Under the pieces are notes generated by a model. That model saw nothing but the letters and a program-made list of their open reading frames with translations. It was not told the DNA's origin and did no database searches. Positions 54,517 through 58,253 of a DNA stretch of 64,000 bases are shown in pieces; positions within the stretch are counted from its first letter, which is position 1, and the number at the start of each line of letters is the position of its first letter. Position numbers and translations under genes: made by a program. Source of the DNA: Candidatus Dadabacteria bacterium (GTDB lineage Bacteria; Desulfobacterota_D; UBA1144; Nemesobacterales; CSP1-2); contig CAWDVW010000005.1 of NCBI GenBank assembly GCA_963805855.1, positions 480,001 through 544,000 of the forward strand, in the 5' to 3' direction.

Positions 54517-54623
54517 TTTTTTACAGTTGTAGCAGGCTTTGTCTAGAGTGCCCGACCGGGCTCTATAAAGAAGGGAATTTACCCCCAACCCATTCCCTCA
54601 AAGATGTGAGAAAAATCATGAAA

Positions 54624-56015
54624 CTAAGCCTTGATTCTCTTCTTCCCGGGTTGCTTAGCCCTAACGCGCTTCTTTTCCGTTTTATAAGCAAATGGATCCT
54701 TAAGGTCTGGATGAAAGAGCTTGAAGTGGTTTACGTGCATGTCCGAATAAGAGCCGGGCGGATAATACTTATCGTAGAATTCGAGGTCTAAATGCATTGC
54801 CTGAAACACAAGACGCATGTACATCGGGTCAACGAATGCAGGGAACCTTCCATATGTGTCGTAAATGTAATTAGCAACGTCTTTTACAATCTGTATGGTC
54901 CTCTCAGTTGGTTTGGGGGCTTTCATTAGATGTTTATCGGGTTCGGAATAAGGAAATGGCTTATCCGGTTTCCAGGCCTCATTCTTGTGCTCGAAGAAGG
55001 AATCTATAGCCTCGCCCATGTTTTTGTAATATGGAGGACAATACGCTTCGAAAACCCCATCCCTTCCGACGGGCACCGTTGTGGGAGGATCTATCGCCCC
55101 CTTTTTGGGTTGAATAAACCTGAAACCCAATCCCTTGAATAATTGAGGCGCCGCGCCCATTGCAAATCTTGGAATGAAGCCACTGAATGTCCACCCTGCT
55201 AGGCCAAGCGCCTGAAGCGCTAGGCTCATGTTCTGACAGATAAATGCCTGCTCAACATTTAGTCCAGTAAGAATCCTTACTTCGAGATCAAAAAGGGATA
55301 ACTTAACCTGCTCCTTGAGTCTCCCCATCTTTACCCATTTTTCAATCCCTGCCGGCTTACCTGTCAGATCATCAATAATGGTAAATCCATAAGTACTGCT
55401 ACAATATAAAAGAAGCAGATTTATATATTCTTCCGTTATGTCAGTCACCGGTATGAATACTGATGTACCTGGCTTGTTTGTATTCCACTGATTGAAATTA
55501 AACAGACCCGGCATCTTATCGGGAAGCTGCGCCCTTCCGCCCTCTATCTTGACCAGACTTTCCCGATAGAGTTCCAGCACTCGCTGGATTTTCTCATTTC
55601 GGCTCATCTTAAAAAACACATCAAGTTCATGATTTTGAGGGAGCATTCGCTTAACGTCGATGTAATAAAGCCCCTTATCATTCGTAAAAAACAATTCCGT
55701 ACCATGGTTGTTACAAGCCGAAGGCCATGTACGTCCGGTCCACTGACAGAGCAGATCGATCCCAGTTTCGGGTGGAAGGTCTGCAAGGCAAAGTCCCGTT
55801 AGACCGGTTCCAGACCATACTAATAATGCCTCCTCCAATTCATCCAGTGGAACAGGCTCATAGTCGGAAGTAAATTCAAGGGTGGAATCTTTCAGCTCCA
55901 TTCCTAATCCGAATCGACGTGAACGTCTGTTAAATACTGCCTCAAAAAAGGGATACTTTAGGGCCTCTTCATAGCCCTTGTTCAAAATAGATTTAGGATT
56001 GCCTCTTTTTGCCAT
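54624..56015 (-). CDS. Conserved hypothetical protein, nitroreductase-like fold
   Basis: NRRSRRF, RTWPSA, QNMSLALQALGLAGW resemble nitroreductase FMN-binding motifs. Confidence 0.65.
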   Translation of the reverse strand: MAKRGNPKSILNKGYEEALKYPFFEAVFNRRSRRFGLGMELKDSTLEFTSDYEPVPLDELEEALLVWSGTGLTGLCLADLPPETGIDLLCQWTGRTWPSACNNHGTELFFTNDKGLYYIDVKRMLPQNHELDVFFKMSRNEKIQRVLELYRESLVKIEGGRAQLPDKMPGLFNFNQWNTNKPGTSVFIPVTDITEEYINLLLLYCSSTYGFTIIDDLTGKPAGIEKWVKMGRLKEQVKLSLFDLEVRILTGLNVEQAFICQNMSLALQALGLAGWTFSGFIPRFAMGAAPQLFKGLGFRFIQPKKGAIDPPTTVPVGRDGVFEAYCPPYYKNMGEAIDSFFEHKNEAWKPDKPFPYSEPDKHLMKAPKPTERTIQIVKDVANYIYDTYGRFPAFVDPMYMRLVFQAMHLDLEFYDKYYPPGSYSDMHVNHFKLFHPDLKDPFAYKTEKKRVRAKQPGKKRIKA

Positions 56016-56273
56016 CTCGCTTCCTCCAAAGATCTATACGTTGACTAAATCAGAATTTATAATAATGAAACAAAACAATCAATCTAGACAGGTATCACCA
56101 ACGCCGTTTATACACAATATTATATGATAAACGGATTCGCAAAAAACTTGAAGTTTTCACAAGGTGAGGCATTAAAATATTCCAAATTGAAATAAATGTC
56201 AATATAACCCATTTTCAAACGTTTATTCCATTAGAGCTGAATTTATGACGCGTTGAATTTCGATATGATTTAT

Positions 56274-56869
56274 TAGCAGAAACACGAGACCCACGCATGG
56301 GACTTTTTCTCAGTGCTTCCGTCCCATAGTAAAGCTCCTGTGATTCTTTTCTCGATTAAATGAAACTGAAACGCTCGGGCTGCGTAAATGGGATCCCTCC
56401 AGCATGCTTCTGCCATTTTTTTATCCAGTTGTAATTGCCTCGTTCCCGGGGCAATACCGGTCTCCGTCAGCGAGTGATAATCATGACCATTCTGAGCATC
56501 GAAAGACTTCTTCGGGCTTCCGATGGGACCTCGCTGACTGAACCCCCAATGTCGTCGAGCCGAAACAGAATTGGCACACCAGATAAAGCCCCAGGGATTC
56601 ATGCCGCCATATGGGAAGGCATCTAACTCCAGTATCATCGGAGTTGCATAATATTCATCAAAACATAATCCTTAGGTAATTTCCAACCAGTATATGAGTG
56701 CTATCAAATACAACCGCGAATCTCCAACAAAACTACGTTCTTAATCCTTTTGGAATAATTCCTCTTCAGATAGTAGAATCCAGCAAGAAACACAAATCGA
56801 ATTGCTCGAATTCGATAACAATTCGAATGATAGCTTTTAAGTCACTAATATCATTAATACTTATGCACT
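56274..56869 (-). ncRNA. Candidate large structured ncRNA (~600 nt, family unknown)
   Basis: About a dozen stems paired by eye, G-U pairs favour the minus strand, GNRA loop, upstream promoter, no credible protein. Confidence 0.55.
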
Positions 56870-56875
56870 ACAGGT

Positions 56876-56903
56876 CTTATACGATCATGCACTTTAACGT
56901 CAA
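56876..56903 (-). promoter_or_regulatory. Sigma70-like promoter
   Basis: TTGACG-N16-TATAAG on the minus strand. Confidence 0.55.
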
Positions 56904-56917
56904 ACCCAAAAAAACAC

Positions 56918-56945
56918 TTGACAAACTTTTCAAAAGTGCTAGTAT
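56918..56945 (+). promoter_or_regulatory. Sigma70-like promoter with extended -10
   Basis: TTGACA-N16-TAGTAT with TG one base before the -10 hexamer. Confidence 0.65.
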
Positions 56946-56951
56946 GAAACC

Positions 56952-57185
56952 AATGGGGTAGAAAGTACTATAGAGCTAGGACATAACCGAAAGGGCATAA
57001 TCTGTAAAGAAAGGATCAGACGAATTTCGTTCCCTGAGACCAGAAGTTTCGGGCTACGACGCTCGGGTACTAAGTCGGATACACTGGCTACACCCTCCTA
57101 TCATGATGCTTTTTCTCTGTGCGTACAGCGCCCTCCGTTATCAGGAATGAGAGAAGTTATTCATGTTAATAATTCTTAACCCCCT
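56952..57185 (+). ncRNA. Candidate rod-shaped ncRNA (~230 nt, family unknown)
   Basis: Nested end-to-end pairing, strong promoter, and no same-strand gene directly downstream. Confidence 0.55.
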
Positions 57186-57226
57186 TTAGAATCGTGGAAA
57201 TACATCATCTATTAATGTGATAGCAA

Positions 57227-57637
57227 TTATTTAGCTAGCAATACAACTGTTAGGATGGCAAAAACAATTCCCAAAATCTCTCTCAAGTCTAATCGCTCAT
57301 GCAAAACAATCACACCCAGGATCACTGTGACCGCAGGATAGACTGCTGTCAGAGGAACGAGGGCAGAGAGCTTTGCCGGTTGTAAGGCAATAATAAAAAT
57401 TATTGTCCCTATTCCCCATGTTAGCCCCATTAGCAAAGCATATGGGTTTACGGCGAAACCCGTAAAGATTTCGTGCCTTTTAAATATGATCAATGAGGTT
57501 AAAACCGTTATGGTTCCAATTCCCTCGAAAAAATAGACACGATATGGAATATCCCTCATCAAGGCAATCTTTCCGAAAAAGCTTCCAAGCCCCCACATAG
57601 TTGTAGCAATAATTGCAAATATAACCCATCTTTCCAT
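57227..57637 (-). CDS. EamA-family transporter (single domain)
   Basis: WGLGSFFGK, VPLTAVYPAVTVIL, LHERL. Confidence 0.88.
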   Translation of the reverse strand: MERWVIFAIIATTMWGLGSFFGKIALMRDIPYRVYFFEGIGTITVLTSLIIFKRHEIFTGFAVNPYALLMGLTWGIGTIIFIIALQPAKLSALVPLTAVYPAVTVILGVIVLHERLDLREILGIVFAILTVVLLAK

Positions 57638-57900
57638 TTTGTTTGTCCTTTAAGATTTATTTTAAACCCCAATTGTATAAAAAAAGATAAAGGTTATCAA
57701 CCATCGCAGCTGTTCACATTTAGATTTAGTTTCGTGGTTCAATCTTTGAATGGACACATTTGAAAATACGCTTTCACATTTTAAATACCTTTACCTAGAA
57801 GGATGGAATTTTTAAATTCTATTTAAATATTTTCAACAACAAAATCAAAATAGCCGTATACTTTTCACCAGAAATCAAATTCAAGGGAGGTAGGAACACC

Positions 57901-58173
57901 ATGAAGAAACTCAGATTGTTTCTTTTAGTTTCTTTGTCGATCTTTCTTTTCACCTCATACGGCTTATCACAAGCCGCGCCCGTCGATTTAAATGAAGCTT
58001 CAGTTGAGCAACTCGCCGAACTGCCCGGAATAGGTGAGGCTACTGCAAAAAGGATAGTCGAATACAGGGAGCAGAACGGCAAGTTCGAAACGACTGAAGA
58101 CATAATGAATGTAAAGGGCATAGGTGAAAAGAAATACCAAACGCTGAAAGACTTGATTACAGTAAGTAATTAA
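57901..58173 (+). CDS. comEA: ComEA-like helix-hairpin-helix DNA-binding protein
   Basis: Signal peptide, VDLNEAS, LPGIGEATA, VKGIGEKK. Confidence 0.88.
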   Translation: MKKLRLFLLVSLSIFLFTSYGLSQAAPVDLNEASVEQLAELPGIGEATAKRIVEYREQNGKFETTEDIMNVKGIGEKKYQTLKDLITVSN

Positions 58174-58253
58174 GTGCTTGACATAAGAATCATCAACATA
58201 TGATTCTCACCCAATATAATCAGAAGGGATTTTATTAAATTCCTTAACGAGAC

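Follow-up and report, generated by a model that had tools for sequence, protein, structure and literature searches.

The question raised by this locus is whether a long gap between two genes houses a pair of RNAs that act as one system, a single RNA, or no functional product. The window, i.e. the whole stretch of 64,000 nucleotides that was analysed, corresponds to C5:480001-544000 in the genome of an uncultured sediment bacterium (G000; 3.11 Mb in 9 contigs, 94% complete). A preliminary description of the gap had proposed two back-to-back promoters, each followed by a structured non-coding segment, and had suggested that the two RNAs are co-regulated or mutually exclusive and act together. 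The gap and the genes that bound it are as follows:

56016-57226, 1211 bp: gap without genes, between the 463-aa ORF and the EamA-family ORF
54624-56015, minus strand: ORF of 463 aa, with no Pfam or NCBIfam family
57227-57637, minus strand: gene for an EamA-family membrane protein (transporter)

No further copy of the gap was detected in its own genome, where it matches itself alone, and as a single-copy sequence it does not qualify as a repeat of the REP or MITE type. REP-like repeats had been described as common in the other long gaps of the window, but a single scan over the entire window (seed 12, minimum length 22 nt) revealed no repeat family of more than two copies.

Judged by comparison with its relatives, the gap is two different things: the promoter and leader of the 463-aa gene, and a lineage-specific non-coding segment. 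The three-sequence comparisons and all statements on covariation are based on G000, the related genome G001 (equivalent to L002/L012) and the single metagenome contig L015. The parts that they delimit are listed here:

56016-56260 (about 245-250 bp), minus strand: promoter of the 463-aa gene and a leader of about 150 nt, distinct from the lineage-specific segment
56202-56174, minus strand: promoter TTGACA-17-TATTTT upstream of the 463-aa gene, kept in all three lineages
56261-57209 (about 950 bp), no strand assigned: lineage-specific non-coding segment, defined by comparison with relatives

The first part is common to all four lineages found. Its identity in the three-sequence comparison (0.93/0.91/0.91) lies above that of the fourfold-degenerate sites in the flanking genes (0.73-0.81), and the same holds against the lineage of metagenome contig L013, where the identity is 0.76-0.77 and that of the fourfold sites 0.63-0.71.

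The distribution of the second part is narrow. It is carried by G000, G001 and L015, as well as by a truncated metagenome contig (L014) that is 99% identical; in L015, 56502-56787 (286 bp) has been swapped for about 162 unrelated nt. In the congener G002 and the metagenome contigs L013 and L016, about 135 unrelated nt stand in place of the whole segment, and in the outgroup genus (G005) EamA is followed by 113 nt and then by the 463-aa gene. Of the four lineages, that of the G002 type diverges most at fourfold sites (identity 0.63-0.71), and the spacer of G005 is 113 nt long; parsimony therefore makes it more likely that the long spacer was gained in one sub-lineage than that it is ancestral. 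Searches of the segment against its own genome with tblastx and blastn returned nothing below E 0.1, and there was no match in plasmid and phage collections. The replacement pieces in L015 and L013 are likewise not repeats. Four DNA runs yield only short, fragmented contigs over the gap, and from these no joint spanning the segment was obtained.

This part of the gap has a single long reading frame:

56273-56638, minus strand: ORF of 121 codons, judged to be spurious and not a gene

In G001, stops and a frame shift disrupt it, and its identity by codon position (0.77/0.78/0.74) indicates equal change at all three positions; the corresponding values for the flanking genes are 0.96/0.98/0.80 and 0.99/0.99/0.85. 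The ORF belongs to no Pfam or NCBIfam family. A search of 1.84 billion representative proteins gave a single match, a called ORF crossing the same non-coding locus in a relative. With a broken frame, no periodicity and no real homologues, 56273-56638 was rejected both as a protein gene and as a recognizable pseudogene. More generally, none of the ORFs of at least eight codons shows protein-like conservation throughout the three lineages; three ORFs share a stop column in all of them without being conserved as proteins. The sole small ORF candidate on the plus-strand RNA discussed below is 15 codons long (57103-57150), lacks an upstream Shine-Dalgarno sequence and differs in frame between lineages.

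The segment also contains a promoter on the plus strand:

56918-56945, plus strand: sigma-70-type promoter with extended -10 element, TTGACA-16-TG-n-TAGTAT, predicted start at about 56952

Its -35 box (TTGACA) occupies 56918-56923 and its -10 box (TAGTAT, preceded by TG) 56940-56945, and it scores 10/12 plus the TG in a consensus scan. Promoter-like sites as such are not above chance in this region, with eight in 55800-57800 vs 5.6 +/- 2.0 in shuffles. The stricter class with a perfect TTGACA, a spacer of 16-18 nt, TG-n and TAnnnT is represented by 14 sites genome-wide, as compared with 5, 2 and 4 sites in block shuffles of the genome. Three of the 14 directly precede RNA genes (a tRNA, a tRNA-tRNA pair and a 5S rRNA), and one precedes a gene whose product, from a translation read by eye, we take to start like ribosomal protein L13. 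Thirteen of the sites have, within 82 nt, the start of one of those RNA genes or of an ORF of 40 aa or more; the promoter at 56918 is the only exception, the nearest such ORF being 948 nt away. With no conserved ORF behind it, the earlier statement that a non-coding segment follows the plus-strand promoter stands.

The resemblance to promoters of stable RNAs in the same genome (C5:20467, C6:180644 and C2:289266; tRNA and 5S rRNA) extends to the perfect TTGACA, the spacer of 16-18 nt and the TG-extended -10 box, and the tRNA promoter on contig C6 also has the spacer stretches TTGACAAA ... TTCAAAAGTG in common with the one at 56918. Those promoters, however, have a recognizable RNA gene within about 35-45 nt, whereas this one has none. 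In both G001 and L015 the promoter reads TTGACA-16-TATCAT with the TG and scores 11/12. All 12 key positions are kept in these two lineages, against a background in which 451 of the 683 segment columns (0.66) are invariant in all three carriers, and the two promoter positions that do differ are nearer to consensus in G001 and L015 than in G000. At one contig end from run X6, the -35 box is kept beside changed upstream sequence, a weak observation from a single contig of depth 4.5. Because the promoter is conserved in two other lineages and belongs to a class that is rare genome-wide, it is judged to be very likely real and probably functional.

What such a promoter would produce is a matter of the DNA between it and the end of the EamA gene, in which two features were delimited:

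56952-57142 (about 190 nt), plus strand: candidate non-coding RNA body, whose 5' end is predicted to pair with 57134-57141
57140-57226 (87 nt), no strand assigned: better-conserved block beside the EamA stop codon, identity 0.86/0.86/0.84

Our tentative preference, held with slightly less than even confidence, is that the promoter gives rise to a non-coding transcript from about 56952, likeliest a lineage-restricted and fast-evolving sRNA, within a segment that is mostly drifting. Under this reading, most of the approximately 950 bp would change at about the neutral rate, while a strong promoter of housekeeping type at 56918-56945 would be kept under selection inside it and would fire the transcript. 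The product would be a small RNA of about 190-280 nt, closed at its 5' end by the predicted pairing and ending near the EamA stop codon, and it would act as an RNA, either in trans by base-pairing or in cis toward EamA. The 87-nt block could then be a 3' region shared by EamA and the plus-strand transcript. In the consensus fold this block holds an 11-bp long-range hairpin (57156-57166 with 57209-57219), with a z score of only -1.25 for the fold.

The body of the candidate RNA provides mixed evidence. Identity over 56952-57139 is 0.78/0.68/0.65 vs 0.81/0.75/0.73 at fourfold sites and is not above neutral. The preliminary description had called the segments after both promoters structured, and folding of single sequences lends this no support: with dinucleotide shuffles as reference, z is -0.09 for 56950-57226 on the plus strand and -1.22 for 56640-56870 on the minus strand, no better than the shuffles. 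Consensus folds of the three sequences do give signals that are specific to the proposed strands, although weak (z of about -2). For 56952-57142, RNAalifold with column shuffles gives a z of -2.04 on the plus strand (3 of 100 shuffles as good) vs +0.28 on the minus strand. In the resulting structure 88% of cells are paired, and five pairs show double changes vs 2.2 +/- 1.0 in shuffles (4 of 500 reach this number), a count that is biased upward since these three sequences were also the source of the structure. The covariation term of RNAalifold is a net penalty, and about one-third of the pairs fail in one sequence.

No intrinsic terminator was found on the plus strand in 56952-57890. Rfam gave no match at the gathering thresholds anywhere in the window, and at E values up to 10 only chance-level matches to a trypanosomatid snoRNA and mir-234 in 55900-57400; ARAGORN detected no tRNA or tmRNA in 55500-58000. 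Among 15 genomes of the family, covariance models of this candidate and of the minus-strand candidate described below match only G000 and G001, and the plus-strand model (R1) has no match in the congener G002, which is 95% complete.

In several respects the locus resembles orphan bacterial sRNA genes, which have their own sigma-70-type promoter, lack an ORF, lie between convergent or unrelated genes, occur in close relatives only and turn over rapidly in sequence. It differs from them in having no intrinsic terminator and no conservation above the neutral level. None of the sequencing runs recorded as RNA contains 54600-58200, a result that speaks neither for nor against transcription. A likeness to 6S RNA (RF00013) is also apparent in the length of about 190 nt, the ends that are predicted to pair and the strong promoter of housekeeping type. 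However, there is no RF00013 match at E values up to 10 and no predicted rod with a central bubble, and the candidate is absent from the congener and 13 other genomes of the family, unlike a core RNA; the 6S reading was therefore rejected. The RF00013 search also found no 6S RNA elsewhere in the 94%-complete genome.

A somewhat unlikely explanation is that the 950 bp are leftover acquired or rearranged DNA that serves no purpose today, in which the promoter either survives as a not yet decayed relic or matches the consensus by chance, and transcripts, if any, would be noise. Identity at or under that of fourfold sites over most of the segment is in line with this, as are its frequent indels, the 286-bp sub-block exchanged in L015, the absence of the whole segment in G002, L013 and L016 and the breaking of public assemblies into short contigs at this point. 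The 121-codon ORF with neither periodicity nor relatives, and regional promoter-like sites that are no more numerous than chance, point in the same direction. Against it stands the invariance of 12 of 12 key promoter positions when only 0.66 of columns are invariant, together with a 21-nt block (56845-56865) that is identical in all three lineages and the strand-specific signals in the consensus folds; nor was any relic of a protein or repeat found. Overall, the plus-strand promoter probably makes a non-coding transcript, plausibly a fast-evolving orphan sRNA or else an antisense RNA that runs toward EamA, inside a spacer that is lineage-specific and drifting.

The antisense version of that description would have the promoter fire into the 3' end of the convergent EamA gene and lower its expression by transcriptional interference or by an RNA duplex, so that the body of the transcript would need no conservation. 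The promoter does point at EamA, 275 nt away, with no plus-strand terminator between it and the far side of that gene, and it is kept while the body evolves neutrally; the 87 nt nearest to EamA are better conserved (0.84-0.86). We nevertheless consider this reading improbable, given that EamA is kept in the G002 lineage and in genus G005 without any such promoter. Rho, moreover, usually halts untranslated RNA before it exceeds a few hundred nucleotides.

The proposal of two cooperating or mutually exclusive RNAs from divergent promoters depends on a second pair of features, upstream of the plus-strand promoter and on the opposite strand:

56876-56903, minus strand: promoter-like box TTGACG-16-TATAAG (-35 at 56903-56898, -10 at 56881-56876)
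56789-56869 (about 80 nt), minus strand: candidate short RNA with an invariant block, a hairpin and a U-rich tail

The geometry is as the preliminary description had it: the boxes are divergent, both spacers are 16 nt long and the -35 boxes are 14 bp apart. The two promoters themselves fared differently, in that the one on the plus strand is borne out by its conservation and rare class and the one on the minus strand is doubtful. The -10 box of the latter, TATAAG, lacks the final T, for which reason the promoter scan did not list the site. The box is kept in L015 as TTGACT-16-TATAAG, but in G001 the -35 box is lost (TTAGGC) along with a 1-nt deletion and no site is left; the -35 box is apparently also lost in a fourth variant, seen at one contig end of low depth. 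On the sequences compared, it would be at best a weak and unstable promoter.

The segment is somewhat better kept at 56790-56917 (0.77/0.83/0.82), where the 21-nt invariant block lies, and the best of all consensus-fold signals comes from 56770-56875, with a z of -2.36 on the minus strand (2 of 100 column shuffles as good) vs -1.57 on the plus strand. Several G-U pairs in the hairpins of the candidate are valid on the minus strand only, although there are no double changes. The A/U-rich hairpin at 56797-56826 on the minus strand (-11.1 kcal/mol) and the U-rich tail behind it would make a poor terminator.

Nothing indicates that the two RNAs act together. Shuffled sequences match the duplex energy between the plus-strand segment and the minus-strand transcript in 20 of 200 and 72 of 200 cases. 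The best complementary block has -21.8 kcal/mol in G000, as against -12.0 in G001 and -7.9 in L015, and the longest exact words shared by the two candidates are 9-mers that differ between lineages. No conserved complementarity joins the two. Linkage in relatives had also been predicted, and both elements do occur in the same genomes, but this is a trivial consequence of their sharing a single segment of 950 bp, which the congener lacks altogether. In light of the duplex energies, the missing complementarity and the lost minus-strand box, a co-acting or co-regulated two-part RNA system is unsupported, and we regard the model of two structured, cooperating or mutually exclusive RNAs as quite improbable. 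Its most specific form, a newly acquired RNA-only module in which a short minus-strand RNA, with the invariant 21-nt block at its 5' end and a hairpin, and a longer plus-strand RNA share a control region with 14 bp between the -35 boxes and affect one another or a joint target, is very improbable; if true, it would represent an undescribed kind of paired-RNA locus that has no protein partner.

A better known arrangement of two divergent promoters is that of tisB/istR-1, shoB/ohsC and zor/orz, as well as dinQ/agrB, which are described in PMC4147584 as divergent type I toxin-antitoxin loci, and which resemble this locus in their two divergently oriented promoters at a site free of protein genes. 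The reading of the gap as such a locus, with the transcript of a small toxic peptide and a divergent sRNA that pairs with its leader, is scarcely credible and was rejected, as there is neither a small ORF conserved as a toxin nor conserved complementarity between the transcripts.

If the preferred reading of a plus-strand sRNA is correct and the promoter's transcript is stable, an uncultured lineage of the Thermodesulfobacteriota would have yielded another lineage-restricted sRNA, an addition of local interest only. The case is of some use for method: a rare, conserved promoter of the stable-RNA type can be embedded in otherwise neutrally drifting DNA, so that RNA systems are poorly predicted by promoter geometry alone.

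Several minor observations concern similar sequences elsewhere. In other genera of the family (L004-L007), a promoter almost identical to that at 56918 (ACACTTGACAAAC/GTTTT...) is followed after about 200 nt by a conserved hairpin that carries a T-run and by a tiny, lysine-rich ORF of about 25-30 codons, which is rich in K and G and has a good ribosome-binding site. Matches of 26-28 nt in five other genomes of the family were rejected as homologues of the locus, since they consist of a similar promoter before an unrelated lysine-rich ORF. The 5S rRNA gene at C2:289110-289226 of G000 (minus strand; L042 511-627) lies directly behind its own promoter with perfect -35 and extended -10 elements, and it seems to be transcribed alone and not as the last gene of an rRNA operon. 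Of the 14 sites, a further two, C7:293843 and C3:75653 (both plus strand), have no Rfam family at the gathering threshold downstream and only doubtful ORFs, and may mark further unannotated RNAs or small genes.

Within the gap, an inverted repeat (TCGAATT-N5-AATTCGA, 56799-56817) is kept in G000 and G001 with a variable 5-nt center, and one of its arms is changed to AATCCGA in L015. Instead of, or besides, forming an RNA hairpin, it might serve to bind a protein, at a point about 140 nt upstream of the plus-strand start. A second indel-prone spacer is found nearby, between EamA and a ComEA-like gene, where G001 has about 290 nt more than G000 (at 57760-57770).

The 463-aa protein on the other side of the gap has no sequence match in Pfam, NCBIfam or the PDB, and its gene adjoins an HpaB-family gene. 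It is present in all 15 genomes of the family at 82-96% identity, with about three paralogues per genome, and in the Atlas it falls among clusters labeled 'hypothetical protein', with a nitroreductase label of 16% for one of them. As a conserved protein of unknown function, it is arguably of more interest than the gap itself.
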